Shown one piece after another: positions 5,761 to 54,143 of a DNA stretch of 64,000 nt (positions are counted from its first letter, which is position 1; every line of letters begins with the position of its first letter). The DNA comes from Salarias fasciatus. Taxonomy: Eukaryota. A program made the translations under genes and the position numbers. Below the pieces are notes generated by a model. The model was given only the letters and a program-made list of their open reading frames with translations. It was not told where the DNA came from and did not search any database. The DNA lies in the NCBI RefSeq assembly GCF_902148845.1, contig NC_043762.1, positions 28,962,760 to 29,026,759 of the forward strand, in the 5' to 3' direction.

Positions 5761-6080
5761 TGCTCAAAGGTGGAGACTCCACTGTGGTCAGGAGCGGAGT
5801 GCGACCAGCCTGCTTTCAGGCCATCTTACCCGGCCCAGATGTCCCAAAGTAAATGTGGAATTTCCATGGAAAATCAAGCACCCGAGTGTCTCGTTCCATT
5901 GTTGAAGCAGATAAGTTCCCAGAGATTTGCCATTTCCTCTAAGAAACCCAGGCTGACTCCTTCGATCAGCATCAGAGAGGCCTCAAGCCTTTCCCAACTG
6001 GCAGCGGCGGGATTTGAACCCACACCTCCTGAGAGACTGGAACCTGAATCCAGCGCTTTGGACCGCTCGGCCACACTACC
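5759..6080 (-). mobile_element. tRNA-Leu(CAG)-headed SINE, copy 1
   Basis: Reverse complement of 5995-6078 is ggtagtgtggccgagcggtccaaagcgctggattcaggttccagtctc...gtgggttcaaatcccgccgctgcc, a cloverleaf with a CAG anticodon. A roughly 250-bp body is shared with 49679-50005. Confidence 0.5.
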
Positions 6081-6225: not shown

Positions 6226-6297
6226 TAGCAGAGGACGGTTTCGATCCATCGGCCTCTGGGTTATGGGCCCGGCACGCTCCCACTGCGCCACTCTGCT
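6226..6297 (-). tRNA. tRNA-iMet-like sequence; probably a pseudogene or SINE head rather than a functional gene
   Basis: Reverse complement is agcagagtggcgcagtgggagcgtgccgggcccataacccagaggccgatggatcgaaaccgtcctctgcta, about 90% identical to vertebrate initiator tRNA-Met. It has a C-A mismatch in the anticodon stem. Confidence 0.4.
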
Positions 6298-7170: not shown

Positions 7171-8019
7171 TTTGAATCTAATACAACTCCAAGGTACTTA
7201 AAGTGTTCTACAGTTTGTAGCGCTTCTCCTCCCAGGTAAACTTTTGCTTGAATGACAGCTGTTGCTTTGGTGATGTAAAGTATGACAGAGTTTCAACCAC
7301 TGCCCCAGTTCAGCGAAAGTGGCCAAGCTCAGCTGTTGTCAATGGATGGATGAGTGAATGTTGGGGAGGGAAGAAAAGAGTCAATCAATCACTCAATCAA
7401 TTTATTTTTGTTATAGCCCAGTATCACAACAACAGTTGCCTCAGAGGGCTTCAAGATGTTACATTGGTTGGTAAAAATAAAAACAGTGAATAAGCATAAA
7501 GTTAATATGTCAAATTCACAGTAACGAGACAAAACGAAGCAACCACCGCCTTAGACCCTCACATCCGGCAAGAAAAACTCCAAAAACCCATTGGGAAAAG
7601 AAGAAATCTTGGGGAGAACCACAGTATGGAGGGATCCCTCTCCCAGGGACGGACAGCTTTGGCAACAGCCAGCATGAGACAATAAGAAGTAAAGCAGGAC
7701 TATGTTGAGGACAGTCCGTTGGACGATCCAGCACAAGAACTACGGATCCCAGAAGTAGAACCGAAGCCAGTCTGCGGGCAGCACAGACAGGAGTGTCCTC
7801 CTGGTCTGGATGGAGCTTGTTCGTAGGCCCTCGTGATAGTGGAGTCAGCAACTGAAACTGGAGACGACTCCCCCTCGAAGGGGGGGACAGCAGGTGAAAA
7901 GCAATGAACGGACTAAAGGGAATAACATTCAGACATTAGAGGATAGGGCTCAGTGCACCGTACTTCCCACAGCATTCTAGCTCCTAGGGCAGCTTTGTGG
8001 ATAGTTTAGTATTTAAACT

Positions 8020-9400
8020 AGTATTTAGTTAGTATAGTTTAGATAGTTTAGTTTAGTTTAATTTAGTTTAGTTTAGTTTAGAATCCCTAGCTGACCTGAT
8101 CATAGGCTGCATCGAAGAGAAACATCTTGAGCCAAACCTTAAATGTGGAGACTGTGTCTGCCTCTTTGACACCACTTGGAAGCTGGTTCCATAAAAACGG
8201 TGCCTGATAGCTAAAGGCTCTTCCACCTAGTGTCCATTCAGAGACTCTAGGAGTCACCAGTAACCCTGCATTTTGAGAGCGAAGTGCACTGATTGGTTGA
8301 TAAGGCGTTAAAGCATCTTGGAGATAGGTCGGAGCCATCCCATTTAGGATTTTGTAAGTGAGGAGAAGGATTTTAAATCTAACTCTAAACTCGACAGGAA
8401 GCCAGTGAAGAGATTTTAGAACGGGAGTAATGTGTTCACGTCTTCTAGTTCCGGTTAATAATCTGGCGGCCGCATTTTGAACCAACTGAAAGTTTTTTAA
8501 TGCACTTTTTGGGCAGGCTGCAAGAAGGGAGTTGCAGTAGTCCAGTCTAGTAGAAACAAATGCATGGATGAGTTTTTCTGCATCGCTTCTAGGTAGAATG
8601 TTTCTTATTTTAGCTGTGTTGCGCAAGTGGAATATGCTGTTTTACAAGCCAGGTTGATGTGTGCTTTAAAGGAGATATCCTGATCAAATAAGACCCCGAG
8701 GTTCCTGACAGTAGAGGAGGAGGATACACTGACGTTATCTAAGGTGATAATCTGTTCAGACAGACACTCTCTCAGTTTATGGGGGCCTAGTATAATGACC
8801 TCTGTTTTGCCAGGATTAAGACGGAGATAGTTCGTAGTCATCCAGGATTTAATTTCTCTGATACAGTCACTGAGTCTGTCTATTTGATTAGTTTGATCAG
8901 GTTTCATAGATAAATACAGTTGTGTGTCATCTGCATAACAATGAAAATTGATATCGTGACTTCTAATTATGTTCCCTAAAGGAAGCATATACAGCAGAAA
9001 TAAAATTGGCCCGAGCACGGACCCTTGAGGAACCCCATAACTGACCTGGGAGCACGGTGAGGACTGTTGGTTAACGTGAACAAATTGGTACCTATTAGAT
9101 AAATAGGATTTGAACCAGCAGAGGGCTTTTCCTCTGGTGCCAACCTCACATTCTAACCTCTGCAGGAGAATATTGTGGTCAATTGTATCAAAAGCTGCAC
9201 TGAGGTCTAAGAGAACCAGGATTGAGGCGAGACCTGCGTCAGCCGCCAATAGCAAGTCATTAGTGACTTTAACTAACACAGTCTCAGTGCTGTGATAAGC
9301 TCTATATCCTGACTGAAATTTCTCAAATAAACTGTTGTCCTGTAGGTGGCGGCAAAGCTGTTTAACCACGACTTTTTCCAGGACTTTTGAAATAAAAGGC
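8020..9400 (-). mobile_element. L2/CR1-like LINE copy (RT plus C-terminal region) with a (TAAAC/GTTTA)n-type 3' tail
   Basis: Minus ORFs 8605-9369 (...GYRAYHSTETVLVKV...LLDLSAAFDTIDH...[13 protein letters not shown]...) and 8087-8626 (...RLDYCNSLL...). Tail gtttagtttagtttaatttagtttag at 8020-8087. Confidence 0.65.
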
Positions 9401-9698
9401 AGATTTGATATCGGTCTGTAGTTGGCTAGAATATCAGGATCAAGATTAGAGTGGACTGCCTTGGTTCCGAGACTTACTCAATGGTGGAGATTTCACTCAA
9501 ACAGGACTTTTTCGACCTGCTTTCAGTTGGAAGTGTCCCAGCCATCCAACTTTGTCAACATGGTCAACCACAGACGTTGTGTGCTCCAGATGTCCTCAAT
9601 GTCTTCCAATCCATGTGGTGTCCAAGGTCATATCCACGACCATGGCTTACTACTTCAAGTCAAACGTGTCCACGCTGTCGTGTGCTTTTTCCACAGGT

Positions 9699-9771
9699 GT
9701 TTCCGTAGTGTAGTGGTCATCATGTTCATCTCACACATGAAAGGTCCCCTGGTCGAAACAGGGCGGAAACA
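9699..9771 (+). tRNA. tRNA-Val(CAC)-like pseudogene or SINE head with CpG-to-TpG/CpA decay
   Basis: gtttccgtagtgtagtggtcatcatgttcatctcacacatgaaaggtcccctggtcgaaacagggcggaaaca against canonical tRNA-Val ...ggttatcacgttcgcctcacacgcgaaaggtccccggttcgaaaccgggc.... Every difference is at a CpG, and one T is missing from the T-loop. Confidence 0.4.
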
Positions 9772-10149
9772 TCCAGGTGTGCCTAAACGCCACCTGCGTT
9801 TTCGGTTGATGGCCTTTGACTCTAATCTGTGGGGCTTTGAAGGAGGCTGTCAGCTGAGACACTCCTGCTTCCTAATGGCCAGCCCTTGCGGACATTGAGG
9901 CGCAGTGTGAATTTCACAATGGAATGTCGCGCTTGATATGATGGACTGGAATTGATGATGTCTGCTGTTCATGCTGTAGAGCCAGAAGACATCTACCAAA
10001 GATGAGCCATGAGTTATAGCAGCACAAACCCCTTTCACTCGCAACTCGATGAACTTCATGCCACCCCTGAACTCCCAGCATGCAATGCAGCAACCAAAAC
10101 ACAAATGGCGAACCCCTGGGTGGCTACAATATGGAATAATTCCAGTTCA

Positions 10150-15590: not shown

Positions 15591-16258
15591 GGAAGAGTCC
15601 CCTTTGGAGACACAATGAGGGATGCTGTGGCCTATGGCTCAACCTTGGGCATGCATTCCAGGCCGGCTTCAGCTGCACCATGCATGGCCACCAGTGCTCG
15701 GCTGTCGACTAAAACTCTGAAGGAACCGTGCTATCCCTCCAGTAAGAATGCAGCTTCCTGAAGAAGTCCTCTGGGGGAGGGACAGCAAATGCAGAGGGGT
15801 ACTGGGACTGCCTGCACTGGAAGAAGGCAAGAAGGTGTGTCTGCCATCGCAGCCTTGGAGGGCAAACTTCGCTGCTCCGACCAACACAGTCGTAAGGCTA
15901 CCAGCAATGAAGTATGATGCCATATCGGCAAGACCCATTATCTTCAAAACTGTAGTTTACTGTCGCCGGCGACACTCAAGAAGAAAAGAGGAACCGAACC
16001 TGTGGTGACACCAGAACGTATTACCTTTCAGGGGTCACCCAGGGGTCACAGGCTGGTATGAATACAACAACTGTACATGCGCAAAGAGAACATTTCACGC
16101 TTTCAGCACCGACTTCTGGCAGTCAGTAGGAATGAAATAGAATTTCCAAAGATCCTTTTTTCAGTCTTACGTGGAACTGAATGGATTTTTTCCCCCGAAG
16201 TTTTTTGTTTCTTGAGAACAAATAGTTGAGAAATTAAATTGAAGTAAATAGTAAATAC

Positions 16259-16793
16259 CTCTGTCCTTTGTTAGAGCAGTTATGAGGCTCCCCCCCTTCT
16301 TCAGCTCCTTCTGCTCCTCCTCATCTTCTTCCTCCTCATCCTCTTCGTTCCACTTCTCCTGGTTCTCCTGCTCCTCCTCATTCTCCTCCTGGTTCTGCTC
16401 ATCATCATTCTTTTGGCTCTGCTTCTCCTCATTCTTCTTCTGTTCCTGATGTCCTGTCATGTTCTGCTTCTTCTCATCTTCCTCCTGATGCTCCAGCTCC
16501 TCCTCCTCCTTCTCTTCCTGACTCTCCACCTTTTCATTCTTCTCATTTTCTTGCAGTTGTGAGAGCTTCTCCTCCTCATCCTCCATGTTTTCATCTTTCT
16601 GATCTTCCTCTGCTTTCTTTACCTTCTCTTCCTCCAACTTTTCTTCCTCCTCCTCCTTCTCATCAGTCTTCTCTTCCTCCTCATCACCTTCCTGCTCCTC
16701 CTCTTCCTCATCCTCCTTCACACACCTATCAGCCTCCTTCAGAGTGATTGAGCTGAATCCTGAACTGTGTCTTCCTTTGGAGCCCATGTTGAA
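16259..16793 (-). CDS. tep1: TEP1 exon encoding a greatly expanded Glu/Lys/Gln-rich acidic linker (FNMGSKGRHSSGFSSITLKEADRCVKEDEEEEE...EEEQKELKKGGSLITALTKDR)
   Basis: Acceptor ctcttgcag|TTCAAC and donor gacagag|gtattt; 535 nt in one open frame. Phase is continuous with the next exon (12682-12767). It sits where human TEP1 has ...TGNMWQKKANTPETQ...ESDASMDSDASMDSEPTP, and the starts (FNMGSKGR vs GNMWQKK) align. Confidence 0.45.
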
Positions 16794-17086
16794 CTGCAAG
16801 AGAGGACAAAGTCATGTTTCTCTAAAAACAGCCGTTAGTTTTGATTTGGAGATTCAGAAAAGATGCTCCTAAAGAAAAGTAGAACAAAGCAGAATTTTTC
16901 AGTGTGTGAAGCTTCAACTATATGAAGGAGCCTGTGATTGCAAGTCTAATTGAAGCTGATGTGTCTTATTGGGAAACTTGTAAAACAGGAATACATTCCC
17001 CCGAGACAGTGGAGATTATTGAACTATTTAGTTGAGGTTGACCAACAACATTAAGGTGTTACAGTCAAAGTAAAACTCACCAAGAA

Positions 17087-18586: not shown

Positions 18587-18709
18587 GGCCTTGTTGTGTT
18601 CTTCATTCCACATCATCTGCCAAACATCAACCTGCAGCGATGTCTTGTTGCTAATAGCTAGCTGGTCTTTGGGCATGAAGCAGGCTGCTGTGATGGGGGA
18701 GTCGGACAC
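18587..18709 (-). CDS. tep1: TEP1 WD40 exon VSDSPITAACFMPKDQLAISNKTSLQVDVWQMMWNEEHNKAR
   Basis: Acceptor ttgtgtcag|GTGTCC and donor ggccag|gtaaat. Confidence 0.45.
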
Positions 18710-18790
18710 CTGACACAAACATTCATCTGGTTCACTTCAACATGAAAACATATGTCTACATCGATAACCTTTCTCGTGGAAATACTCACC

Positions 18791-18920
18791 TGTTTGTGGG
18801 TAATAATGGCGTGGTGACGCCACACCTCCACCAAACCGGACTCATAACCAGCAACAAACATTTCACCGTTTTCAGAGTAGCTCATAACTGCAACCGAGTT
18901 CTTCTGGTCCTTGGGATAGT
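18791..18920 (-). CDS. tep1: TEP1 WD40 exon DYPKDQKNSVAVMSYSENGEMFVAGYESGLVEVWRHHAIITHKQ
   Basis: Acceptor ctggacag|ACTATCC and donor aaacag|gtgagt. Confidence 0.5.
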
Positions 18921-19983
18921 CTGTCCAGAAAGGGGATAATATGGTTTTAAAAATGAGTCTGACATGACAAAAGACAGCTGAAGAGGAAACTGTGCTCATC
19001 TGGCTGTGCTGCAACTGAACAATGTGCATCTGCATATCTACACTTGTGAGACTTTTATTCAGATTGAAAAACTAGATGGAAGCTGAAGTTAAAGGGGCTG
19101 TATCATGCAAAATTCACTTTTTGTATGTTTTAACCTTGTTATATAGTTATGTACTCACCAAAAACACCCCCAAAGCGTTTTTTTCCTTCGTGCCTGCGTG
19201 TTTGAGCTTTCCTCATGTTTGTGCTGCTCAGAGAGGCAGCCCCTCCCGCACCCGTGAAAACGCTCTGTTTTCCCACGTTCACGTCACACGGTGAAGATGG
19301 CTCCCCTGAGCCCCCCTCCCGCAGGCCCTCGGCAATCAGCGTTGCTGCTTTTTGTCACTCCGATTACGGAGATAAAGTTTAACCATCGTCTGAAAGCAAC
19401 AATCAAGCAAAAGCAGGAGTCTGAAGAGTCTGCGCTTGGTGAGTTTCTAACAGGAAAAGAAGTTTTCGCGTGTAGAGAAGCTAGAGCTAAAGAGCTAAAG
19501 CTAGCTAGCGTATTTGTTTTGAAGCGCTGATTGGTTGAAGTACGCTGTCAGTCAAAGTCCACAGGGGGAGAGGCGGGATTTCAGTGAAACAGAGCGTTTT
19601 CTCTTCCAGGTTTCAGAATTAGCCCCAGAAAATCTTTTATTTCACACAAAATTACTTTTCCTTAGCGCCAAAAATAAACTATTACCATGTTAGAGCCATT
19701 TCTAGGGTTTGGACTAGCTAAAAAAGCATGATACAGCCCCTTTAAGTTCTGTAACTGTCTGCTTTTCATCATCTTAAAAATTTTATTGTGTGTGTGTCAT
19801 TTCTGTCATCCTTTTATTTCAAGTCTATTTTCCCCCATTGTAATGTTCTCACATCCTCCGGTCCCCCTTTAAAAAAGGGGAACCACCACCCCAGTCTGCC
19901 AATCCAGAGGCACTGTCCCTGACCGCCACGCGATGTTGCATAGACGTGTCAACCAAGACAGTCCCTGAACATCCGGAGACTTA

Positions 19984-20509
19984 AAGCTGGGGTTGGCGAT
20001 CTTGGAAAACTAGCATGTAGCACGAATGTAGCATCTCCCCAAGGCTCCGCCCAGCTCCCACCCCATTGGAGGAGCTCCGTTGGGAGCGGAGACGCGGAGA
20101 CGTGCGCGCGGTGCGCGCAGCGCTTCCGCGTCCAGTGCGTTCCTGGCGTAACCTGTCCTCAGCGCTTCGTTTCTTCGTTTTTCTTTATTTGGACTACTCC
20201 AAGTTATGGCGCACTTCTCCGCCATTCTGCAACGACGCTCCGTCCTTCTACGCGCGCACTGAACCAGCACGCCATTGACATGTACGCGCAGGGGGCAGGT
20301 CGAACGGCGAAGGGATTTGATTGGTTTAAAAAAAGGTGTCCCGTCAAGACGATTGGTTGCTGTTTTCCCCGTTTTACTCCTGCTGTAGATAGCGGATATT
20401 TTCCAAACTACTTTAAGAACACGCCATGAATTGCTTCCTATCGGGTCATAAAGATCATTTTAACCAGTATTTAAAAAAATGTATCTCATTCAAATCGCCA
20501 ACCCTAGCT
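19984..20509. mobile_element. 526-bp MITE with 19-21 bp terminal inverted repeats and a TTAA target-site duplication (piggyBac-like target choice), inserted in the RT region of LINE copy 1
   Basis: Left end agctggggttggcgatcttgg; right end reverse-complements to agctagggttggcgatttg. TTAA is present at 19980-83 and 20510-13. Removing the element rejoins the LINE frame as ..GVDEIGPEYLK|SPDVQGLSWLTRLCN... No internal ORF. Confidence 0.55.
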
Positions 20510-22586
20510 TTAAGGTACTCAGGGCCAATCTCATCCACCCCCGGTGCCTTGCCACCGAGGAGCTTACCGACCACCTCGGTGACTTCAGCTTGGGTGATGG
20601 ACGAGTCCACCTCTGAGACCTCAGTCCACCTCTGAGACCTCAGCCTCTGCTTCCTCCACGGAAGACGTGGCGACGGGATTGAGGAGGTACTCGAAGTATT
20701 CCTTCCACCGTCCAACAATATCCCCAGTTGAGGTCAGCAGCTCCTCCTCCACTGTAAACAGTGTTAGTAGAGACCTGCTTTCCCCTCCTGAGGCGCCGGA
20801 CGGTTTGCCAGAATTTCTTTGAGGCTGACCAATAGTCCTTCTCCATGGCCTCCTGAACTCCTCCCAGATCCGAGTTTTTGCCTCCACAACCGCTCGAGCT
20901 GCAGTTCGCTTGGCCTGCCGGTACCTGTCAGCTGCTTCCGGAGTCCCATGAGCCAACAAGGCTCGATAGGACTCCTTTTTCACCTTGACAGCAGCCCTGA
21001 CTTCCGGTGTCCATCACCGGGTTCAGGGGTTACCGCCACGACAGGCACCTGTTGAAGTTGAAGTTCCCCAGTAGAACAATGGAGTCCCCAGTCACCCCTC
21101 CCAGAGACTCTAAGAAGGCCGGGTACTCAGCACCGCTGTTCAGCCCGTAAGCCGAGACAACAGTGAGGCACCTATTCCCGACCCGAAGGCGCAGAGATGC
21201 GACCCTCTCGTTCACTAGGGAAAACTCCAACACATGGCGGCTGAGCTGTGGGCCTATAAGCAAACCCACACCAGTCCACCGCCTCTCACCACGGGCAATG
21301 CCAGTGAAGGGGAGAGTCCAGCCCTTCTCGAGAGGTTGGGTTCCAGAGCCCTGGCTGTGTTGAGGTGAGCTCGACTATACCTAGCCGGTACCTCTCCAGG
21401 GTTTCCGCCAGACCTTTTCAGTCCGGGTGCCCCGCCCGCGCTAAATTGTGCAGCGCCCGGACAACGGAGAGGAGAAAAAAAAAACAAAACTCTCCGACAG
21501 TCGAACACCGGCAGCGTTAGGCGTTAGCAGTGACACCACACGCCCCCACCCCCCCCCACCGGCCAAACTTTTCTCCTTCAGAAAACACTGCTCCCAACCA
21601 CCCTCAAAAGGTCAGGCTCCTTTCCCCCCCAACGAGGATGTGCTCCAACTATAGGGGAATCACACTCCTCAGCCTCCCTGGGAAAGTCTACTCCAGGATA
21701 CTGGAGAGGAGGATTCGACCGATAGTCAAACCTCGGATTCAGGAGGAACAATGCGGTTTTCGTCCTGGTCGCCGAACACTGGACCAGCTCTAGACCCTAC
21801 ATAGGGTGCTCAAGGGTTCTTGGGAGTGCGCCTGACCAGTTCACATGTGTTTTGTGGACTTGGAAAAGGCGTTTGACCGCGTCTCTCGTGGTGTCTTGTG
21901 GGGGGTGCTTCAGGAATATGGAGTCCGGGGCCCCTTGTTAAGGGCCGTTTGGTCTCTGTATGACTGGAGTAGGAGTCTGGTCCACTTTGCCGGCAGTAAG
22001 TCGGGCCTGTTCCCGGTGCATATTGGACTCTGGCAGGGCTGCCCTTTGTCACCGGTTCTGTTCGTCATTTTTATGGACAGAATTTCTAGGTGCAGCCAGG
22101 GGCCGGAGGGGGTCCGGTTCAGGGACCACAGGATTTCATCTTTGCTTTTTGCCAATAATGTTATCCTGTTAAATTTATCATACCTGGACCTGCAGCATGC
22201 ACTGGGGAGGTTCACAGCCATATGTGAAGCGACAGGGATGAGGACCAGCACCTCCAAATCTGAGGCCATGGTCCTCGACCAGAAGAAGGTAGTTTGCCCT
22301 TTCCAGGTTGGTGGAGAGACTGCGGCTGTGGTGATGCAGTCGTTGTATCGGTCCATTGTGGTGAAGAAGGAGCTGAGCCGAAAGGCGAAGCTCTGGATTT
22401 ACTGGTCAATCTACGTTCCCACCCTCATCTATGGTCATGAGCTTTGGGTCATGACTGAAAGGACAAGATCCCGGATACAAGCGGCTGAAATGATCTTCCT
22501 CCGTCGGGTGGCTGGGCTCCCTTAGAGACAGGGGGAGGAGCTCAGTCACCAGGGAGGAGCTCGGAGTGCGCCGCAGCCGCATCGTG

Positions 22587-22588
<2 letters not shown>

Positions 22589-22619
<31 letters not shown>
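22589..22619 (+). repeat. Poly(A) tract of 31 nt inside the 3' region of LINE copy 1
   Basis: A31 follows ...cgcatcgtgatt and precedes the poly(C)-containing segment. Confidence 0.9.
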
Positions 22620-22623
<4 letters not shown>

Positions 22624-22688
22624 CTTTTGGCCGAGTTGGTAAGCAGCTTACAGTCAAGTTGGCACCGACCAACTCGGCCACTTGAGAG

Positions 22689-22724
<36 letters not shown>

Positions 22725-22733
22725 CGAGGCCGA
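22689..22733 (+). repeat. Poly(C) homopolymer of about 45 nt (poly(G) on the minus strand)
   Basis: Uninterrupted C run. It sits inside a structured segment, 22620-22830, that has palindromic ggccgagttgg/ccaactcggcc arms and duplicated gccgacttgactgtatccc motifs. Confidence 0.9.
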
Positions 22734-23189
22734 CTTGGCTTTGATGCCGACTTGACTGTATCCCAGAGGCGGTGCCGAGTTGGCCAGGGCCGACTTGGAT
22801 TGGTGCCGACCTGACTGTATCCCCCGGACAAGCGGTAGAAAATGGATGGAAGGATGAATGTAATGTTCTCCTCACCAGTCAGCATGAAAATAGTCATGAA
22901 CTGACTCCAAGTCGTTGAACTGTGCAGCCCGAGCAGGACGAGAAGCATTTAATCCTGCTCATGATTAAACATAACTACACATGCTTGGAGCTCTGTTCTT
23001 TCAGTTTAAATAATCACTTAGTGTACCTTTTAAAATGTAGTTTTTCCACTCTTATCTTGAATTTTCACTTTGGTTTTTCATCCTTTTTGCCTTATCTCTA
23101 TTCAATCTACTTGTCAGCCACTAAAAAAGATCCCAACCTGCACGGGAAGTGTCACATGAACACAGTTTGGATGATCAGCTGATCTGTAC

Positions 23190-40769: not shown

Positions 40770-43700
40770 CTGACCTGCCACCTTAAAGTGGTGGGGGAGT
40801 TTGAGCGCCTACGTGATCCCAGGTGCTATGTTGTCCGGGGCTTTATGCCCCTGGTAGGGCCTCCCATGACAGACAGGTCCTGGGTGATGGGCCAGACCAA
40901 GGGCAGGTCGACAGCCCTTATGAAAACATTAAAATCTAGGTCTGTGACGTCGCCCGGTATGGCGCAGCCGGGGCCCCACCCTGGAGCCAGGCCTGGGGTT
41001 GGGGCTCGCAAGCAAGCGCCTGGTGGCCGGGCTCAGCCCGAAAGGGCGATGTGGGCCAACCCTCCGGAGGACCCACCACTTACCGAGGGAACCGTAGGGG
41101 CTGGGTGCAGTGTGGACTGGGTGGCAGCCAACGGCAGGGTTCCCAGCAACCCGATCCTCAGACACAGACACCAGCTCTATGGACGTGGAATGTCACCTCA
41201 CTGTGGGCGGAGTAGCCTGAGCTTGTGAGTGAGGTTGAGAGGTACCGGCTAGATGTAGTAGGGCTCACCTCCACACACAGCCGGGGCTCTGGAACACAAT
41301 TCCTCGAGAAGGGCTGGACACTCCACTGCTCTGGAGTTGCCCGTGGTGAGAGGCGGCGGGCTGGTGTGGGTTTGCTTACAGCCCCACAGCTCAGCCGCCA
41401 TGTGTTGGAGTTCACCCCAGTGAAAGAGAGGGTCGCATCCCTGGTCCTTCGGGTCGGGGACAGGTGCCTCACTGTTGTCTCGGCTTACGGGCCAAACAGC
41501 AGTGCTGAGTACCCGGCCTTCTTGGAGTCCCTGGGAGGGGTGCTGGACAGTGCTCCATCTGGGGACTCCATTGTTCTACTGGGGGACTTCAACGCCCACG
41601 TGGGCAGAGACAGTGAGACCTGGAAGGGGGTGATTGGATCGCATGGCCTCCCTGATCTGAACCCCAGTGGTGTTCTGTTACTGGACTTCTCTGCTGGCCA
41701 CAGTTTGTCCATAATAAACACCATGTTGGAGCACAGGGGGGTCCATAAGTGCACTTGGCACCAGGGCATCCTAGGTCGGAGATCGATGATCGACTTTGTT
41801 GTCGTGTCATCTGACCTCTGACCTCATGATGGGTGCAGAGAGGAGCAGAGCTGTGGACCGATCACCACCTGGTGGTGAGTTGGATTCGCTGGCGGAGGAG
41901 GAAACCGGACAGACTTGGCAGACCCAAAAGTATTGTGAGGGTCTGCTGGGAACGTCTGGTGGAACCCTCTGTCAGCAGGGTTTTCAACTCCCACCTCCGG
42001 GAGAGCTTCTCTCATGTCCCGAGGGACGCTGGGGACATTGACTGCCCATGCACACTGGATGCGGTCCGCCAGCGTTCCAGCTGCAGTCCGGCTCCGGCCC
42101 GGTACACCGCAGCACTGTGATTCACACCGCCTGCGGTGTCTCTGCAGTCCGCTGGAGAAGGTTGCCAGATCTGTCGTTATCCCCCGTAGACCATTTGAAA
42201 CCAGTTTAACTCAATAGAAAGCAGCCCAAACCTCCATCTCGGATGAAAATGCACGTTAAAACCGTATTTGTATGATAAAAAACACGTCATAAACACATAA
42301 TCATTTCATCAACCCGTCCGACGTGTTCAAAAAAGATGCTTGATTTGGTACAAACCTGCCCAATCTGGCAGCACGGAGCTGCTCCGGTCACAGAGCTGTT
42401 TTTAGCCATTTTGGAGTCATTTGACTTTTCAGCAGTGACTAAGTACAAAACCGTTCATTCTTCCAATCCGTATAATGACTACATTACATTGTTGTTCTGT
42501 ATTCCACCAGAAGAAGTAAAAAAATAGAAAATTAAGGCGAAAACACGACACAGATTTTATTTTGAGGTCACTTATTTTGGAACACGTAGTGCGTTTCCTT
42601 CCGGCACCCGACTTGCTTCCGTCTGAATTGACGCGTTAGGCCTGCGGCATCCGGAAAAATAGGATCCTTGCGGAAAGATACCGGAGCTCCACAGAGGCTC
42701 CGGAGCCGGACCGCAGCCGGACTGCAGCCGGACTGCGGCCGGTGTGAACCACAGCATTGATTTTAATGACTACGGATTAGCTGCGGTGTCCGGACCGCAT
42801 CCAGTGTGCATCGGGGGTGAGTCCGACTGGACCATGTTCTCTACCTCCATTGTCGAAGCAGTTGCCCGGCGCTATGGTCGTAAGGTCTCCGGTGCCTGTC
42901 GTGGCGGCAACCCCCAAATCCGGTGGTGGACACCGGAAGTAAGGGCTGCCGTCAAGAAGGAGTCCTATCGAGTCTTGTTGGCTCTTGGGACTCCCGAAGC
43001 AGCTGACAGGTACTAGCAGGCCAAGCAAACTTTAGCCCAAGTGGTTGTGGAGGGAAAAACTCAGGTCTGGGAGGAGTTCAGGAGGCCGTGGAGGAGGACT
43101 ACCGGTCGACCTCGAAGAAATTCTGGCAAACCGTCCGGCGCCTCAGGAGGGGAAAGCAGGTCTCCACCAACACTGTTTACAGTGGAGGAGGGGAGCTGCT
43201 GAGGAGCAGGAGTCTGGTCCGCATTGCCGGCAGTAAATCGGACCTGTTCCCGGTGCAGGTTGCACTCCGGCAGGTCTGCCCTTTGTCACTGGTTGTGTTC
43301 ATCATTTTTATGGACAAGGGGGCCATAAAAATGATGGGGGCCGGAGGGGGTCCGGTTTGGGGACCACAGGATTTCATCTTTGCTTTTTGCAGATGATGTT
43401 GTCCTGCTGGCTTCATCGAACCCGGACCTACAGCATGCACTGGGGCGGTTCGCAGCTGAGTGTGAAGCGACAGGGATGAGGATCAGCACCTCCAAATCCA
43501 AGACCATGGTCCTCGACCGGAACAAGGTGGCTTGCCCCTCCAGGTTGGTGGAGAGACTCTGGCCCAAGTGGAGGAGTTTAAGTATCTCGGGGTCTTGTTC
43601 ACGAGTGAGGGACGGATGGAGGTGAGATTGACAGGCGGATCAGTGCAGCATCTGCCGTCATGCAGTTGTTGTATCGGTCCGTTGTGGTGAAGAAGGAGCT

Positions 43701-44175
43701 GAGGTGAAGCTCTTGATTTACAGGCCAATCTACGTTCCCACCCTCACCTATGGTCATGAGCTTTGGGTCATGACCGAAAGGACAAGATCCCGGATACAAG
43801 CAGCTTAAATGAGCTTCCTCCGGAGGGGGGCTGGGCTCCCTCAGAGACAGGGTGAGGAGCTCAGTCACCTCCACATCGAGAGGAGCCAGCTGAGGTGGCT
43901 CGGGCACCTCTTTAGGATGCCTCCTGGACTCCTCCCTGGGGAGGTTTACCGGGCATGTCCCACTGGGAGGAGACCCCGGGGAAGACCCAGGACATGATGG
44001 AGAGACTATGTCTCTTGGCTGGCCTGGGAACGCCTTGGGATCCTCCCAGAGGAGCTGGAGGAAGAGTCTGGGGACAGGGAAGTCTGGGCATCTCTGCTGA
44101 GACTGCTGCCCCCGCGACCCGGCCCCGGATAAGTGGTGGAAGATTGATGGATGGATGGATGGATTGACGGATATC
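40770..44175 (+). mobile_element. Copy 2 of the same retrotransposon family (about 430-bp 5'UTR, EN, RT, (TGGA)n tail) in a TEP1 intron; carries an internal deletion and a foreign insertion
   Basis: EN ORF 41225-41821 ([23 protein letters not shown]...[10 protein letters not shown]...). RT pieces 43088-43800. The sequence of this copy's 3' end (about 43820-44000) translates to ...FLRRGAGLPQRQGEELSHLHIERSQLRWLGHLFRMPPG..., followed by gatggatggatggatggattgacgg at 44140-44165. Confidence 0.65.
42120..42745. mobile_element. About 620-bp insertion bounded by imperfect inverted repeats inside LINE copy 2 (MITE-like, or an inverted duplication of adjacent LINE sequence)
   Basis: gcagcactgtgattcacaccgcctgcggtgtc (42113-42144) opposes ccggtgtgaaccacagcattg (42738-42758). 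The ctgcagtccggctccgg motif recurs in inverted orientation (42700-42735). The LINE ORF resumes at 42744. Confidence 0.35.
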
Positions 44176-44552: not shown

Positions 44553-44645
44553 CGGCACCAACCCTGTCGAAGGAGGCAAAGTTCCTCAGGTCTTCACAGG
44601 CCAGGTGCAGGTAGAGAGGACTCAAAGCCCCCTTCTTCATGATCA
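44553..44645 (-). CDS. tep1: TEP1 exon LQTLIMKKGALSPLYLHLACEDLRNFASFDR
   Basis: Acceptor ttttcag|CTCCAG and donor gacagg|gttggt (weak). Matches TEP1 MRLLLVKRESGRPLYLRLVTDHLRLFTLYEQ. Confidence 0.5.
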
Positions 44646-44746
44646 GCGTCTGGAGCTGAAAAGGTGAACCAGTACAAGTTTAACACAATAAAAAGCACAG
44701 ACGTTACACAGATATGGTGCCTGCAGTAGAAAAGTAAGAAGAAAAC

Positions 44747-44926
44747 CTGGCTGTTGAACGCAGAGTCACTGAGTTTCTTCCCGAAGGCGTCCAGCTCCTT
44801 TTTAACGATTTCCCTGCGGTCCGGCACGGTGAGCGGTCCCAGGGAAAACAGGACTGTGCCTGTTTTCTTGACCAGCGTTTGTAACAGAGGCGCTTTGGAG
44901 GTCATGCTCACAACCAAACACACACC
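44747..44926 (-). CDS. tep1: TEP1 exon GVCLVVSMTSKAPLLQTLVKKTGTVLFSLGPLTVPDRREIVKKELDAFGKKLSDSAFNSQ
   Basis: Acceptor gttcttcag|GGTGTG and donor cagccag|gttttc. Matches TEP1 CVHLVLSVSSDAGLGETLEQ...EELALYGKRLEESPFNNQ. Confidence 0.65.
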
Positions 44927-45007
44927 CTGAAGAACAAAAGACAACCTGAGTGGCAAAAACGTCTGATGACGAGCAGAACACACCATGAATTTAAGACTTA
45001 CTCAACG

Positions 45008-47090: not shown

Positions 47091-49678
47091 ACACAGAGAG
47101 AAAATTCAAGGAAACTCACTTGAATAAAACAATTTTATGTCAAATGAAAGTAAAAAAAAGGCATGTCATTCAGTTCAGAGACCTGAAGAATGCCCAGGTG
47201 AGAATATCCTACTGGCTGTGTTTTATTTAACTTCTCTTTAGCTCAGGAGTTCAAGAAAAAATTTTCATTTGACAGAAATCTTTATTTCTGTTAAAATAAC
47301 GGACGTCCTCCTCCAAGAAAATTCAAAAAATTTTGATGGATTTCCTGTATTCTGGTGGATTTTAAATGATGAAATATGTTTTTGACTGATCCTCTTGTTG
47401 TCAAAAATGGATAAAAGAGGTAGAAGCTCTGTCTGTAGCACTCTGCATAAAATGATGTCTTCATAATTAAAACTAATGGCCATAAGGATGCCTTAATATA
47501 ATTTTACAGAATTTGCCAATAGAACTGTTTGAATTGCAAATTATTTGGTGTAGAGTATTTGCAGTCACGTGGCCCGGGATTTGGCAACCGAGGGACCGCC
47601 GCCATATTGGAGTGAAAACAACCAGTGATACGCGTGCAGTGAGGCGGTGTTCTTTAAAGATAGGGTAGGCGATGTTGTCCAAAAGCACTTTTTGTCATAC
47701 TGAGTGAAACGCTCCTTCCCCCTGGGAGAAGTCAATACATTATGTGTGTGGAAAAAGGTGCGGAAACGATTTTAAAACAACAGTAGCGGCCACAGGACTT
47801 TAAAAACTCCAACCAATCGTAAGGCGTGGACCGCTCTTAAGGAACCAATCAGATTGTGATGTCAGATCAAGTGGACAACCTTGACGTAACACACAAAGAC
47901 CGATACCGGGAGAAAATGCGGATTTCAGGCTTGCAGCATGATCTGTACTTGAAGCCAACCGCCTGTTCCAGCCATGCACGGCTGAGACTCAAGAACTCCC
48001 CGATCTGGAGTACGCCGACATTTACTGTTATCTAATCGACAGTTCTTCGGCGCACACAAAAGCAGCGATGAAGGCGTACAAAAACCTGGATTCCTACAAG
48101 TATTTTGTTTCCGGCTTTGTGGGAGCATCGGGACAGTATCGAATCTGCAACACGGACAACGTTCTTGTAAAGTCTACAGTGTGTAGATCTGCTAACTTAA
48201 AGGAGTCATATTATGCAAAATTCACTTTAAAAAGGTGTCTTTAGAGTCATATTACCTTCCAGAGCCAGATCCCCCAGAAGTGAAAAATTCAGTCGCCTCC
48301 CTCAATTGCGCTCTCCACTTTTAAGAAAATATACACTCAAACATGTGATTCTGAAATCTTCCTCTTGATGACGTCAACAAGAGGAACACCACTCCCACCC
48401 CCTGGAAGAGGATCCAGCCTTCGGGGCCCCCGGATAGGTGGTTAGGTGGTATAGTAGTATGTGTTCAAATTTGAAAACTGTGTTTGTCCTCCTTGTCTCT
48501 CGCTACACCATATTTTTCAAAATGAAACTGAAACTTAAGCTGAAACGGTCGAGGAGACGTGCCTCTGACTGTGACACCCCCCCATGGGAGAGAGTCGGCG
48601 TGGCCAGATGCATCCAAGTGCATCCCGTAAAGTACGCTGTGAAAAACAAGAGGGCTCCTGAGAGCCACTTTTTAGAATGCTCAAACTCCGAACATAGGAT
48701 GAATTTGGTTCAAATAAACTTATATACTATGTTTTTGGGCTTCTGTGACCTGCATGACGTGACTGAAAAATAGCATAATAGGTCCGCTTTAAATGTCAGA
48801 GTTATCTCCAGGCTAAAATGGACTTGTTCATCATGGAAGTCATTGAACCCGTTCGGCCCGATGGACCCTGTACCGGGTCCAGCAGCCGTCTGCTCCACTT
48901 CAACGAGTGTAAAAAGTGACTAAAATGCTGTGAGGATGATTTCTTTCAACTGTGTCTCAAACAAGAAGCCTTAATCTCACTAACTGAAGGCTCCAGCTGC
49001 ACTTTGACGACCGAGTGTTTGTTTTATAACAACTTTAAAATCCAGATGCAACAATTCGACACGCCCCCCTCACCCGCACCTCCAGACACAAAACGCTACA
49101 GAACCAGAGAGCCGTTTGCTCCACTGCAACGTGTTGGGTCTCATATGAAACTAGAAAATCTACACTTTAAGATGATAACAGAATATTCTCTGAGCCGACC
49201 GCCTCCCGTCAGCGGCAAAACAAACCCAAAACAGATCTTCACATTTCACAGCCAGCACCTCAGATCATGTTTCCCACACACTTCTTCACCAAATCTCAAA
49301 GCTTTTCACACCAAACACAACATATTTTATGTCCTTACCATTTTGTGGCCATTTTCCATCTATTCACGCTCTCCTCTGGCCAAAATTAGCCGCATAATCC
49401 TCTGGAGTAGTGAAAGAGCGTCATGCGCCTGAATGTTTGTTCTCACTCCAACATGGCGGCGACTACCCGACGTGCATTGCGAGGCCGGGTGCGTGATGTC
49501 AGCTGTGAATACTCTATTCTTATGAAAGCTGCAGACTGTTTTTTCATCAAGGTCAAAAAGAAAACACAATTTTACTCCACCACTGAAATCTAGATCAAGT
49601 AGTCTCATTTCAGCACTATTAACTCACTTGTCGCGGGGCAGCTGAGCTGTCTGTGATCTGCTCTGCTCCAGGACTTGT

Positions 49679-50005
49679 TCAAAGGTGGAGACTCCGCTCT
49701 GATCAGCCTGCTTTCAGGCCATCTTACCCGGCCCAGATATCCCAAAGTTCATGTTGACTTTTCATGGAAATTCAAGCACCCAAGAGTCTCGTGCCATTGT
49801 TGAAGCAGCAGACAAGTTCCACAGGTGCTGCCAGGTTTGAAGTCGACTGGGCTTTGCCGTTTCCCCAACACACCTTGGCTGACTCAGTGTCAGAGAAGCC
49901 TGGAAAGGCTTCAAAACTGACAGTGGCGGGATTTGAACCCACGCCTCCTGAGAGACTGGAACCTGAATCAAGCGCCTTGGACCACTCGGTCACACTACCT
50001 GCTTT
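49679..50005 (-). mobile_element. tRNA-Leu(CAG)-headed SINE, copy 2
   Basis: Same head (49920-50000) and body as copy 1 (...ctgctttcaggccatcttacccggcccagat.tcccaaagt...), in the same orientation. Confidence 0.5.
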
Positions 50006-52199: not shown

Positions 52200-54143
52200 A
52201 AATCAAGAGATAATAATAATAATAATAATGAATTTTATTTATCATGCACTTTACATTTGTAAAACAAATCTCAAAGTGCTACAATGGAATTTAAAAACAA
52301 CAGTGACAATTAAAAGTAACAGATACAGGCTAAATCAATAAAAAACTCTCATACTTTTGCACGTCATAAAATACAACAAAGTACAGTAAAATCATTCAAA
52401 CGCTTTCACAAACAAAAACATTTTTAAGCAAGATTTAAATAAGTCCACCGACTGTGGTGCCCTCAGGTGGGCAGGTAGGGCATTCCACAGTCGGGGTGCT
52501 GCAGCCTGAAAAGCCCTGTCCCCCATGGAACACAGTTTGGTTTTGGGGACCTTTAGCAAGTTGATGTCGGCGGAGCGGAGGCGTCTGGTCGGGTCGTGTG
52601 GGGAGAGAAGTTCTTTTAGGTACACTGGTGCACTACCATAGACACACTGATGGGTCAGGAGGCAGATTTTGTATTCCAGCCTGAACCTTATCGGGAGCCA
52701 GTGAAGGTTATGGAGAATGGGAGTGATATGGTGTCTTTTTGGCACCCTCATCAGGATCCTGGCAGCACAGTTCTGGATCGACTGAAGCCGTTGTAGGCTT
52801 CTTCCAGAGATCCCGATGAGGAGTGCATTGCAGTAGTCCAGCCTGGAGGAGACAAAAGCATGGACCAGCTTCTCAGCAACGGGGAGGGAGAGGACGGGGC
52901 GTAGTTTGGAGATGTTCCGGAGGTGAAAAAATGAGGTCTTACAGATGTGTTGGATATGGAGGTCAAAGGAGAGGGTGGGGTCAAAGCGGACACCCAGGTT
53001 GGTAACGGCAGTTGTTGGGTTGATTTTGTGGCTGGCAAATGATAGGACTGTGAAAGGGGAGGACTTAAGTTGATGTGGAGTTCCAATTAATAGAAATTCA
53101 GTTTTGGAGCTGTTGAGCTGGAGAAAATTGTCATTCATCCATGCTTTAGTCTCCTCCAGGCAGGCGGTGAGTGATTGGATAGCAAGGGAGGAGGTCCGGT
53201 CCAGCCTGACATAGAGCTGAGTATCATCAGCATAGCAATGGTAGGAGACTCCATGCCTGCTGATGGTGTGGCCCAAAGGGAGCATGTAGATGGAGAACAG
53301 GCTAGGCCCCAGCACTGACCCCTGGGGAACCCCACAGGTGACAGCGTCGGACCTCGACCTGGCTTCCCCAAGGGCGACTTACTCAGCCCGACCAGTCAGG
53401 TAGGACCGGAACCACTGGAGCACTGTATCTGAAAGACCAATGAAATGCTGGAGTCTGTGGAGGAGGATGGAGTGGTCAACAGTGTCGAAGGCGGCTTAGA
53501 GGTCCAGGAGTAACAGGAGTGATGGAGAGCCCTGGTCAGAGGCCACCAGCAAATCGTTGGTGACCCTGACCAGAGCTGTCTCAGTGCTGTGAGCTGAACG
53601 GAAACCGGATTGGAATTTGTCGTACAGATGGGAGGACTGGAGATGTGTGTGAATTTGAGAGGAGACTACCTTTTCAATGATTTTTGACAGGAAGGGAAGA
53701 TTGGAAATGGGCCAGTAATTAGATGTTTTTTCAGGGTCAAGGGAGGGTTTTTTGAGAAGTGGTTTAATTATTGCATTTTTCAATGACTGTGGCAGGTGAC
53801 CGTGTTGCAGGGAGTGATTGATGATAGTTGTGATTAGGGGGCTCAGTGTGGAAACATGGGATTTGATCAGGGATGTGGGAAGTGGATCCAGGTGACAGGT
53901 GGAGGGCCTCATCTTGCGGATGACGTCCTCCACCTGTCTGTCTGTGACAGGGAAAAACTGGGAAAATTTGGAAGCTGGAGTGGCAGGTGTGGAGTTAGGA
54001 GAACTAGAGGGCAGGAGAGCAGAACGAATGTTATCAATCTTGGATATGAATGTATCCAAGAATGCATCACATTGTTCGTTATTGTTTGTTTTTTGTGTAA
54101 GTGGTTGTGGTGCGAGAAGTTTGTTTACAGTTTTAAAACTCAA
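52200..54143 (-). mobile_element. Second copy of the L2/CR1-like LINE (RT region), in a TEP1 intron, with a (TAA)n tail
   Basis: Minus ORFs 53496-54143 (...[23 protein letters not shown]...LLLLLDL) and 52392-53315 (...[14 protein letters not shown]...[10 protein letters not shown]...). (TAA)7 at 52213-52232. Confidence 0.65.

Follow-up and report, generated by a model that had tools for sequence, protein, structure and literature searches.

A hairpin-rich, non-LINE block with long A and C runs replaces part of a decayed Rex3 element in an intron of Salarias fasciatus

Rex3 is a non-LTR retrotransposon of teleosts, related to RTE, whose 3' end consists of a stop codon, GCG, (GAA)2 and (GATG)n (PMC6274825). 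Tails of this type also occur on other bodies: the Rex3-tailed, tRNA-derived SINEs of Maylandia zebra and Nerophis (loci L057 and L059) join a non-LINE body to a tail of the form ...GGAYAAGCGG..(GATG)n, with a C-run and GCGA just upstream of the tail. Composite copies are also documented for L1, in which LINE-mediated chimeric retrocopies arise by template switching, e.g. U6/L1 chimeras, as do twin-priming inversions. Among DNA transposons the nearest counterparts of the sequence considered here are MITEs of the Tc1/mariner type, and for these the terminal sequence of Sleeping Beauty, CAGTTGAAGTCGG..., served as reference (PMC4820933, PMC5224488). The present work describes a locus that shares features with all of these systems, found within a 64,000-nucleotide stretch of the Salarias fasciatus genome (the window). 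There, a 233-bp block lacking LINE homology, built of repeated units that fold back on one another, partly duplicated in tandem and interspersed with pure homopolymers, stands in the place of coding sequence of a Rex3 element.

The host element is a decayed Rex3 LINE, identified by its reverse transcriptase (RT) domain and by a tail of the TAA-GCG-(GAA)2-(GATG)n type. A domain search matched RVT_1 in this copy at 5e-13, and its RT protein is 60-76% identical to Rex3-type RTs in many teleosts, the best protein matches belonging to the same group. Up to position 22577 the RT portion shares 79-89% DNA identity with Rex3 copies at two loci of other fishes (L001 and L002) and with a second Rex3 copy in the window (copy 2). 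The 3' end is 88.6% identical to the Rex3 tail of L001; tails were compared across seven Rex3 LINE copies, and the stop-GCG-(GAA)2-(GATG)n order is recognizable at 22828-22865 in degenerate form, while intact tails are carried by copy 2, L001, L002, L057 and L059. The RVT_1 domain, the RT similarity and the form of the 3' end are thus all shared with described Rex3 elements. The copy differs from an intact Rex3 in being dead, in the inversion of its 5' part and in the exchange of about 257 bp coding for the C-terminal domain for the block. The inversion is evident from blastn matches in reverse orientation to copy 2 (20734-21049 and 21057-21396), from minus-strand open reading frames (ORFs) that encode LINE endonuclease and linker sequence, and from an Exo_endo_phos match in the equivalent region of copy 2; the left limit, at about 20497, was set by reading the sequence. 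Some 237 bp of unmatched filler (21397-21640) lie at the inversion junction, and the block bears no similarity to them. The whole copy sits in an intron of a minus-strand gene for a WD-repeat protein; when an orthologous locus was sought through this gene, the best match was 48% identical and lay on a 4-kb contig. Decaying Rex3 copies in the window often carry internal deletions, copy 2 having several.

Table 1. Features of the Rex3 copy and of the block within it (positions in the window)
Feature	Positions	Strand	Remarks
5' part of the Rex3 LINE, coding for endonuclease and linker	20497..21396	-	antisense relative to the RT portion
Rex3 LINE RT portion, sense	21634..22587	+	homology to other Rex3 copies stops at ...GCATCG(TGA)
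TT, then pure (A)30 run (22590-22619)	22588..22619	+	left junction of the non-LINE block; direct reading
Partial unit R0 (GGCTTTTGGCCGAGTTGG, then TA)	22621..22641	-	orientation of R1/R2, without the first sub-repeat; holds palindrome left arm 22628-22640
Small palindrome GTAAGC-A-GCTTAC, fold-back turnaround	22639..22651		direct reading
Unit L (TACAGTCAAGTTGGCACCGACCAACTCGGCC)	22649..22679	+	inverted relative to R1/R2; left arm of the 171-bp TA-bounded fold-back
Pure (C)35 run	22689..22723	+	reads G35 in the sense of the host gene (minus strand); direct reading
Unit R1 (plus strand GGCCGACTTGGCTTTGATGCCGACTTGACTGTA)	22728..22760	-	followed by TCCC, as is R2; in the first copy of the 59-nt tandem duplication
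Solitary sub-repeat TGCCGAGTTGGCC	22773..22785	+	between R1 and R2
Unit R2 (plus strand GGCCGACTTGGATTGGTGCCGACCTGACTGTA)	22788..22819	-	right arm of the fold-back; ends in TA directly before the LINE tail
Rex3-type 3' end, CCCCGGA CAA GCG GTA GAA AATG GATG GAAG GATG AATG TAATG	22822..22865	+	degenerate stop-GCG-(GAA)2-(GATG)n

The original prediction had placed a structured segment in the 3' region of a LINE, and LINE (Rex3) sequence does lie on both sides of it. When the copy is aligned with six other Rex3 copies, homology breaks off at about 22584-22587 and resumes at 22821-22822, not near 22830 as had been proposed. Between these points about 257 bp of C-terminal coding sequence are missing and the 233-bp block occupies their place, so that the event is a replacement and not the simple interruption of a LINE that had been envisaged. 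In all other Rex3 copies examined the region is retained, at 82-88% identity, whereas the host copy has no intact C-terminal domain. LINE body, block and tail follow one another in the expected order and in a common orientation, and the right edge of the block coincides with the start of the Rex3 tail of about 45 nt.

That the segment is not LINE sequence, as predicted, is borne out by alignment against the missing Rex3 part. Considered as diverged LINE, the block yields a local alignment with z of about 2.5, near shuffle level (12 of 500 shuffles were as good). In global alignments 341 and 294 of 500 shuffles did as well against L001 and L002b, and 27 of 500 against copy 2 of the same genome, a borderline value; with the alignment anchored at the tail, 509-1131 of 2000 shuffles equalled it. 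Derivation as a templated copy of nearby sequence was likewise rejected, the remainder of the window containing no non-trivial exact match of at least 12 nt to the block.

The block contains four copies of a unit of about 32 nt (TACAGTCAAGTCGGCACCAAnCCAAGTCGGCC), one of them inverted and one partial. L matches R2 at 27/32 positions and R1 matches R2 at 29/33, so that the copies are 84-88% identical, i.e. 12-16% divergent among themselves. A 10-mer, GCCGA[GC]TTG, occurs five times, plus once as its reverse complement, in 22630-22800 and is absent from the rest of the window. The hairpin-rich character originally noted is strongly marked: the two halves of the block, compared as inverted repeats, score 21, against a mean of 7.7 (sd 1.6, maximum 15) in 1000 shuffles, and the predicted DNA fold has a z-score of -4.65, none of 200 shuffles folding as well, with a dominant stem that pairs 22649-22682 with 22777-22819. 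The perfect palindrome that had been reported with 11-nt arms in fact extends to arms of 13 nt (TGGCCGAGTTGGT at 22628-22640 and ACCAACTCGGCCA at 22668-22680) around a loop of 27 nt. Of the two direct copies announced with it, the first (GCCGACTTGACTGTATCCC, 22746-22764) is exact and the second (22805-22823, GCCGACCTGACTGTATCCC) carries one mismatch, and the inverted partial copy was found as TACAGTCAAGTTGGCA at 22649-22664.

The segment 22628-22644 repeats 22646-22651 and 22670-22680 perfectly in inverted orientation, passing over 17-18 nt bounded by AC that lie between these two stretches. R1 and R2 lie within a tandem duplication with a period of 59 nt and match beyond the limits of the unit, in a 12-nt exact match (TGACTGTATCCC); these common flanking bases point to a segmental duplication and not to a second transposition. 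The homology of L to R1 and R2 ends exactly at the flanking TA, the ends reading TA-CAGT...ACTG-TA, and C35 lies inside the resulting fold-back of 171 bp.

An A31 tract and a C45 run had been described on either side of the palindrome. A pure A-run does follow ...GCATCGTGATT, but it is 30 nt long; the C-run is equally pure and comprises 35 nt, the span of 22689-22733 given for it being 10 nt too long. The run remains an extreme C/G homopolymer at this length. Under a base-composition model, runs of at least 30 nt are expected about 1e-12 to 1e-15 times per 64 kb. Mononucleotide runs are common in the window (G23, T21, T17, two T16 and others), and long runs also occur at loci of other fishes (A24 in L001, C14 runs in L002). 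In being pure, and in sharing the window with other runs of 12-23 nt, A30 and C35 resemble mononucleotide microsatellites, yet no run of the window is as long as C35, and runs of G/C are less frequent than those of A/T. The sequence rule for G-quadruplexes and i-motifs (at least four G or C tracts in a short stretch) is trivially satisfied by C35/G35, a candidate for such a structure.

With Tc1/mariner-type MITEs the block shares its size (about 110-170 bp), inverted terminal units of about 32 nt at 84% identity (L against R2), the ends described above and, at each end, a pair of sub-repeats that resemble binding sites and recall the IR/DR arrangement. The inverted units are flanked by TA (22649-22650 and 22818-22819), although this dinucleotide is self-complementary and may just extend the inverted repeat. 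The block differs from such MITEs in having extra copies of the end unit, one internal and one external, and a C-run of 35 nt in its middle; moreover, the host LINE has lost sequence at the site, and cut-and-paste insertion causes no such loss. The resemblance to a Sleeping Beauty-like terminal inverted repeat (TIR) is weak and not significant: in the comparison of TACAG-TCAAGTCGG with Sleeping Beauty TACAGTTGAAGTCGG, 117 of 3000 shuffles scored as well. CAGTCGTGGCCAAAAG... may represent a second Tc1-like TIR; the comparison was confined to that of Sleeping Beauty. No Tc1-like element with an end of the block's type was present in the fish DNA compared, and since the searches described below gave no further copy of the unit, membership in a MITE family is unproven.

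The search for further copies of the block extended to the window, 106 kb of four other teleost assemblies, and viral and metagenome contigs, the source genome lying outside all of these collections, and gave none; patterns made from the unit and from the junction likewise matched no copy in metagenome contigs. A protein search with the minus-strand ORF that spans the block retrieved no further copy, an exact look-up of ORFs for another assembly of the locus returned no record, and strings of the block sequence appeared in the literature in primers only. In prokaryotic genomes 54 matches were obtained, all single and at chance level, and plasmids, E. coli and phages gave no match to the block. 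Without a bacterial, phage or plasmid match, the block is not contamination.

Taken together, these features are best accounted for by a non-functional insertion/deletion scar formed at the DNA level, possibly from a MITE-like fold-back, and later altered by local duplications and by homopolymers grown through slippage, a reading to which we assign a probability of roughly 0.4. An old Rex3 copy in the intron would have lost its C-terminal coding region of about 257 bp and received the 233-bp non-LINE block at the same site. The core of the block may derive from all or part of a small inverted-repeat element bounded by TA, whose terminal units of about 32 nt started TA-CAGT in Tc1/mariner-MITE style. 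After its arrival, one end together with 4-6 flanking bases would have been tandemly duplicated with the 59-nt period, giving R1 and R2, and a short fold-back copy at the left edge could have produced R0 and the perfect palindrome. A30 and C35 would be mononucleotide microsatellites that grew by replication slippage. The replacement, the absence of LINE homology from the block, its units with their fold-back and duplication, and the purity of both runs are observed directly; it is the foreign inverted-repeat seed, the order of events and the slippage origin of the homopolymers that we infer here. Several observations weigh against this DNA-level scar. A plain MITE insertion leaves the 257-bp loss, the position of R0 outside the fold-back and the A-run at the left junction unexplained; the right edge falls at the Rex3 tail, the very site expected of an RT template switch or of a non-autonomous element that shares the tail; and the divergence of the units is approximately that expected if they had formed when the LINE inserted, which fits an event at the time of retrotransposition at least as well.

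The main rival to the DNA-level scar is a chimera formed during retrotransposition, which we regard as possible, if rather unlikely. The Rex3 RT would have initiated at a tail of the Rex3 type, reverse-transcribed a short, structured RNA that is not LINE sequence, and then changed over to Rex3 RNA at a point some 300 nt from the 3' end of the latter. The intervening RNA would have been either a captured one or a non-autonomous element with a Rex3 tail; the A-run would mark the passage between templates, and the C-run would lie within the captured RNA. In a variant, a non-autonomous element with a Rex3 tail would have integrated into (GATG)n at the end of an older Rex3 copy, with deletion of target DNA upstream. 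Such a chimera is favored by the exact stop of the block at the tail, by the common order and orientation of body, block and tail, by the position of the A-run precisely at the junction of LINE body and block, by the agreement of unit divergence with the age of the LINE copy, and by the inverted 5' part and its filler, which are further signs of aberrant integration in the same copy. The locus resembles L1 chimeras in its succession of LINE tail, foreign sequence and further template, in the homopolymer at the junction and in the 5' inversion of the same copy. It differs from them in that the enzyme must here go back to the LINE RNA after the foreign template, in that such chimeras are documented for L1 and not for Rex3, and in the lack of a target-site duplication that would confirm a single event: none was found around the whole LINE (20497-22865), the A-run, or the block with its tail. 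Other teleosts frequently carry Rex3-type tails on bodies of non-LINE origin, 5 of 12 tails belonging to tRNA-derived SINEs or being orphan. The block, however, is unrelated to the bodies of the Rex3-tailed SINEs of Maylandia and Nerophis, comparison with which was negative; it differs from those SINEs in lacking body similarity, a tRNA-like fold and a B box, in the fusion of its 5' side to a Rex3 body, and in the placement of C-run and GCGA 100 nt upstream of the tail. An A-box-like TGGCCGAGTTGG 9 nt past the A-run, in a region with a marginal, post hoc likeness to a tRNA-Leu-like SINE head in its 5' half (8/2000 and 28/2000 shuffles), speaks for such a chimera, but there is no cloverleaf, and TTTT at 6-9 nt into the putative transcript would stop Pol III. 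Non-LTR reverse transcriptases are known to add only a few untemplated bases, a number far exceeded by the 30-nt homopolymer at the junction. A triple template switch is, besides, intrinsically much rarer than nested insertion and deletion, the common flanks of R1 and R2 look like a duplication at the DNA level, and the collections searched gave no further copy. A more specific form of the chimera would make 22620-22865 an undescribed Rex3-dependent non-autonomous retroposon without a Pol III head, with a hairpin body of iterated 11-nt/32-nt units and an internal poly(C) that goes back to the C-run in Rex3 tails, caught in a template-switch chimera with Rex3 RNA and with the junction homopolymer added; this we hold to be quite improbable.

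Rearrangement in situ would require nothing foreign at all: break repair or replication template switching, by fold-back and tandem copying, would have scrambled and amplified the last 165 nt or so of the Rex3 itself. With the fold-back from L to R1 set aside, the block is weakly collinear with that stretch of the Rex3 copy of the same genome (10/500 shuffles as good), including a 9/9 match (TCCCAGAGG); C35-GCGA resembles the CCCCC-GCGA of Rex3, the lengths of block and missing segment are close, and the perfect fold-back with its microhomology-bounded skip and the 59-nt tandem duplication are consistent with such repair. The collinearity was seen against that copy only and is not significant against Rex3 copies of other fishes (70-263 of 500 shuffles), nor do the whole-block and tail-anchored tests given above support it, apart from the borderline value for copy 2. 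R2, the supposed template, would be only about 60% identical to Rex3 where the flanking LINE is 87-89% identical, a gap that neutral decay or copying error cannot explain, and elsewhere the window offers no template of at least 12 nt, all of which makes this account improbable. The unusual SINE of the original prediction, a small poly(A)-tailed element retrotransposed into the LINE with the A-tract as its tail, finds a point in its favor in the long pure A-run that adjoins a non-LINE structured segment within a LINE, together with the A-box-like motif. It is contradicted by polarity: read along the plus strand, the A-run precedes the structured part on its 5' side, and along the minus strand it becomes a T-run at the 3' end, so that it cannot be the poly(A) tail of that part. 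Searches of 22500-22900 with ARAGORN and Rfam for a tRNA, 5S or 7SL head were negative at gathering thresholds and at E<=10, which also dismisses a tRNA or other structured RNA, the tRNA-Leu likeness being marginal; a B box and target-site duplications are lacking, comparison with the window's own tRNA-Leu-headed SINE was negative, the searches made gave no other copy, and the LINE is not just interrupted but short of about 257 bp. A Rex3-type tail does follow the block, although it may belong to the LINE itself. Such a SINE is thus extremely unlikely. There remains an artefact of assembly or sequencing, in which the block, or at least the length of both homopolymers, would differ in the animal's DNA. 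Long homopolymers and hairpins are prone to error on every sequencing platform; an ordered internal structure with diverged repeat copies is not the product of an artefact, however, both flanks are in the right LINE order and orientation, other long mononucleotide runs stand in ordinary contexts within the window, and bacterial, phage or plasmid matches were lacking. We therefore consider an artefact very unlikely.

The block thus looks like ordinary transposon wreckage and not like a new SINE or a functional element. It represents one intronic site of transposon decay, shows no indication of being selected or functional, and as it stands matters little. Its homopolymers of about 30-35 nt and its strong fold-back are likely to cause trouble for sequencing, assembly and PCR across the intron, and since the host gene lies on the minus strand, its pre-mRNA would carry the G35 tract together with one of U30. 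Should the block prove to belong to a dispersed family whose members are linked to Rex3 tails, a new kind of Rex3-dependent non-autonomous element would be added, as would an instance of an RTE-like reverse transcriptase that switches templates; such a family would be of interest to transposon specialists and would leave the general picture unchanged.

Direct reading of the site gives the order ...GCCGCATCGTGATT, A30 (22590-22619), GAGGCTTTTGGCCGAGTTGGTAAGCAGCTTACAGTCAAGTTGGCACCGACCAACTCGGCCACTTGAGAG, C35 (22689-22723), GCGAGGCCGACTTGGCTTTGATGCCGACTTGACTGTATCCCAGAGGCGGTGCCGAGTTGGCCAGGGCCGACTTGGATTGGTGCCGACCTGACTGTATCC and CCCGGACAAGCGGTAGAAAATGGATGG..., within DNA that is teleost-like and rich in transposons throughout the window. 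The original prediction described the site correctly in kind and is amended in its details: the pure A and C runs are both present, but measure 30 rather than 31 nt and 35 rather than 45 nt; the perfect palindrome has arms of 13 rather than 11 nt, and the second of the two direct copies carries one mismatch. The runs, inverted repeat and fold of this 233-bp non-LINE block are far beyond chance. By chance, a window would contain only some 1e-12 to 1e-15 runs of at least 30 nt; for the inverted repeat, the score of 21 exceeds the maximum of 15 from 1000 shuffles, and the DNA fold has a z-score of -4.65. An assembly artefact as the source of these features is very improbable. Other long mononucleotide runs (G23, T21, T17, two T16 and more) are common in the window, and the G23 and T21 show that long runs, G/C included, are not unique to the block.

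Eight copies of a quasi-palindromic 11-mer, GCCGA(G/C)TTGG(C), serve as the bricks of the block. Two bricks and a TACAGT end compose a unit of about 32 nt (TACAGTCAAGTCGGCACCAAnCCAAGTCGGCC), of which there are four, named L, R0, R1 and R2, the full units being 84-88% identical to one another. L and R2 form a 171-bp fold-back bounded by TA, with C35 inside, which is the dominant predicted DNA structure; the likeness of L to the R units ends exactly at the TA. Beyond the unit, R1 and R2 both carry TCCC (a 12-nt exact match), and thus both are part of a 59-nt tandem duplication, in whose first copy C35 occupies the place of GCGGTGCCGAGTTGGC in the second. The left edge shows a short fold-back copy: 22628-22644 repeats 22646-22651 and 22670-22680 perfectly in inverted orientation, with the 17-18 nt between them, bounded by AC microhomology, skipped.

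The surrounding LINE is a Rex3 element, as it possesses an RVT_1 domain, its reverse transcriptase (RT) reaches 76% identity with Rex3-type proteins from many teleosts, and its 3' end matches the published form of stop, GCG, (GAA)2 and (GATG)n (PMC6274825). Intact 3' ends for reference were taken from the second Rex3 copy of the window and from five loci (L001, L002, L057, L058, L059) of four other teleost assemblies. Relative to these, homology stops at ...GCATCG(TGA), about 22584-22587, and resumes at CCCCGGACAAGCGG, 22821-22822. The missing stretch, roughly 257 bp, codes for the C-terminal domain, and all the other copies retain it at 82-88% conservation; since 233 bp of other sequence stand in its place, the event was a replacement and not a plain insertion. 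The inverted 5' part of the same element resembles a 5' inversion of the twin-priming type, and no target-site duplication was found for this copy (20497-22587). Its two parts are separated by about 237 bp (21397-21633) that include A11 and a run rich in C and match no other Rex3 copy.

Coordinates of features in the window and of Rex3-type tails in other assemblies
Feature	Position	Strand or orientation	Remark
Unit R0	22621-22641	same as R1 and R2	partial copy
Unit L	22649-22679	one orientation
Unit R1	22728-22760	opposite to L
Unit R2	22788-22819	opposite to L
Rex3 endonuclease/linker part	20497-21396	antisense to RT part
Rex3 RT part	21634-22587	opposite to endonuclease/linker part
Rex3 copy 2	41225-44170	+	collinear, several internal deletions, 3' end intact, terminates in (GATG)n
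G23	33509-33531		pure homopolymer in unrelated sequence
T21	32277-32297		pure homopolymer in unrelated sequence
L1/Tx1-like LINE, Exo_endo_phos	25916-26566	+
L1/Tx1-like LINE, RVT_1	27197-28033	+
WD-repeat gene, exon-like ORFs	18658-19035, 23152-23346, 23605-24014, 44594-44986	all minus
Rex3-type tails on tRNA-derived SINEs and one orphan fragment	L057 12703-13100 (-), L057 13570-14000 (-), L059 ~7400-7824 (+), L059 ~4745 (-), L059 ~18596 (-)		Maylandia zebra and Nerophis assemblies

The window also holds a SINE of about 300 bp with a tRNA-Leu(CAG)-like head, in two copies (~5780-6080 and ~49620-49999, both minus; 76% identity over 312 nt), a tRNA-Met-like sequence at 6226-6297 (-) and a tRNA-Val-like call, by ARAGORN only, at 9698-9775. 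An L1/Tx1-like LINE at 24147-29668 (+) encodes an ORF1-like 306-aa ORF and a 508-aa C-terminal ORF; RT fragments also occur at 8087-9369 (-) and 52392-54143 (-). A 210-aa ORF at 16167-16799 (-) is of low complexity and extremely rich in glutamate and lysine.

The original prediction had suggested a small structured insertion, perhaps an unusual SINE, that entered the LINE by retrotransposition and would account for the A-run. The A-run cannot be a poly(A) tail of the structured segment, because it lies on the 5' side of that segment and, read on the opposite strand, becomes a 3' T-run. A tRNA-derived SINE was rejected: ARAGORN and Rfam give no match to the block, even at E<=10, and an A-box-like TGGCCGAGTTGG occurs without a B box, while the putative transcript would meet TTTT after 6-9 nt. 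Target-site duplications were not detected either, and a poly(A)-SINE is scarcely credible. The block is a copy neither of the tRNA-Leu-headed SINE of the window, with the 5' half of whose head it shares marginal similarity in a comparison chosen post hoc, nor of the Rex3-tailed SINEs of Maylandia or Nerophis. A diverged LINE was likewise rejected on local, global and tail-anchored alignments to Rex3: the local alignment to the missing segment is marginal (z ~2.5, 12/500 shuffles as good), the global one does no better than shuffles against two of the three references, and the tail-anchored test is negative. Without the central fold-back a weak collinear signal appears, only against the same-genome Rex3 copy (10/500), and an origin by scrambling in situ of the 3' end of this LINE itself is distinctly unlikely. 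Contamination was rejected, as bacterial, phage and plasmid sequences gave no match to the block. No relatives of the block were found within the window, in 106 kb from four other teleosts, in viral and metagenome contigs, by protein search with the ORF spanning the block or in the literature, and prokaryotic genomes gave chance matches only; the collections outside the window do not include the source genome.

The tentatively preferred explanation (probability about 0.4) is a scar formed at the DNA level. In place of the ~257 bp that the decaying LINE lost there would be a small inverted-repeat element, or a fragment of one, bounded by TA and resembling a MITE in its TA|CAGT ends; the 59-nt tandem duplication and the short fold-back copy would have followed, and A30 and C35 may be mononucleotide microsatellites grown by slippage. 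Such a scar fits the inverted-repeat statistics, the flanking bases common to R1 and R2, the frequency with which Rex3 copies of this window have suffered internal deletions, and the fact that homopolymers are abundant in general. Its weaknesses are that a second copy of the inverted-repeat element was not found in the collections searched, that its termini show no significant likeness to those of the Sleeping Beauty type, that the fold-back leaves out an extra partial unit, and that the A-run and the beginning of the Rex3 tail fall, suspiciously, just at the edges of the block. Where the block lies is among the points that favor the main rival, an event at the time of retrotransposition. In this event either the Rex3 reverse transcriptase began on a non-LINE RNA bearing the tail and switched to Rex3 RNA, or a non-autonomous element with a Rex3 tail landed in the tail of an older Rex3 copy and removed target DNA. 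The 5' inversion in the same copy also speaks for it, as does the 12-16% divergence of the units, which is comparable to the age of this LINE copy. Moreover, of the 12 Rex3-type tails seen in the fish DNA that was examined, 5 are on non-LINE bodies, where they read ...CCCCCCGCGACCC...GGATAAGCGG..(GATG)n, so that Rex3 evidently mobilizes tail-sharing partners. Multi-step switching nevertheless has a low prior, the tandem duplication is of DNA type, and neither target-site duplications nor relatives were found in the DNA searched; this rival is rather unlikely. A more novel reading, quite improbable, would make the block a hairpin retroposon of a new kind that depends on Rex3 and was captured here in a template-switch chimera.

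The entire Rex3 element sits in an intron of a minus-strand WD-repeat gene, possibly of NACHT-WD type, the closest database protein to its ORFs (a partial Ilyodon furcidens protein) being only 48% identical. Because of this location, the pre-mRNA would carry G35 and U30. The block itself is real but ordinary transposon wreckage, set apart by a strong fold-back and by pure homopolymers of unusual length, and belongs to known kinds, namely nested or rearranged transposable-element debris and mononucleotide microsatellites.
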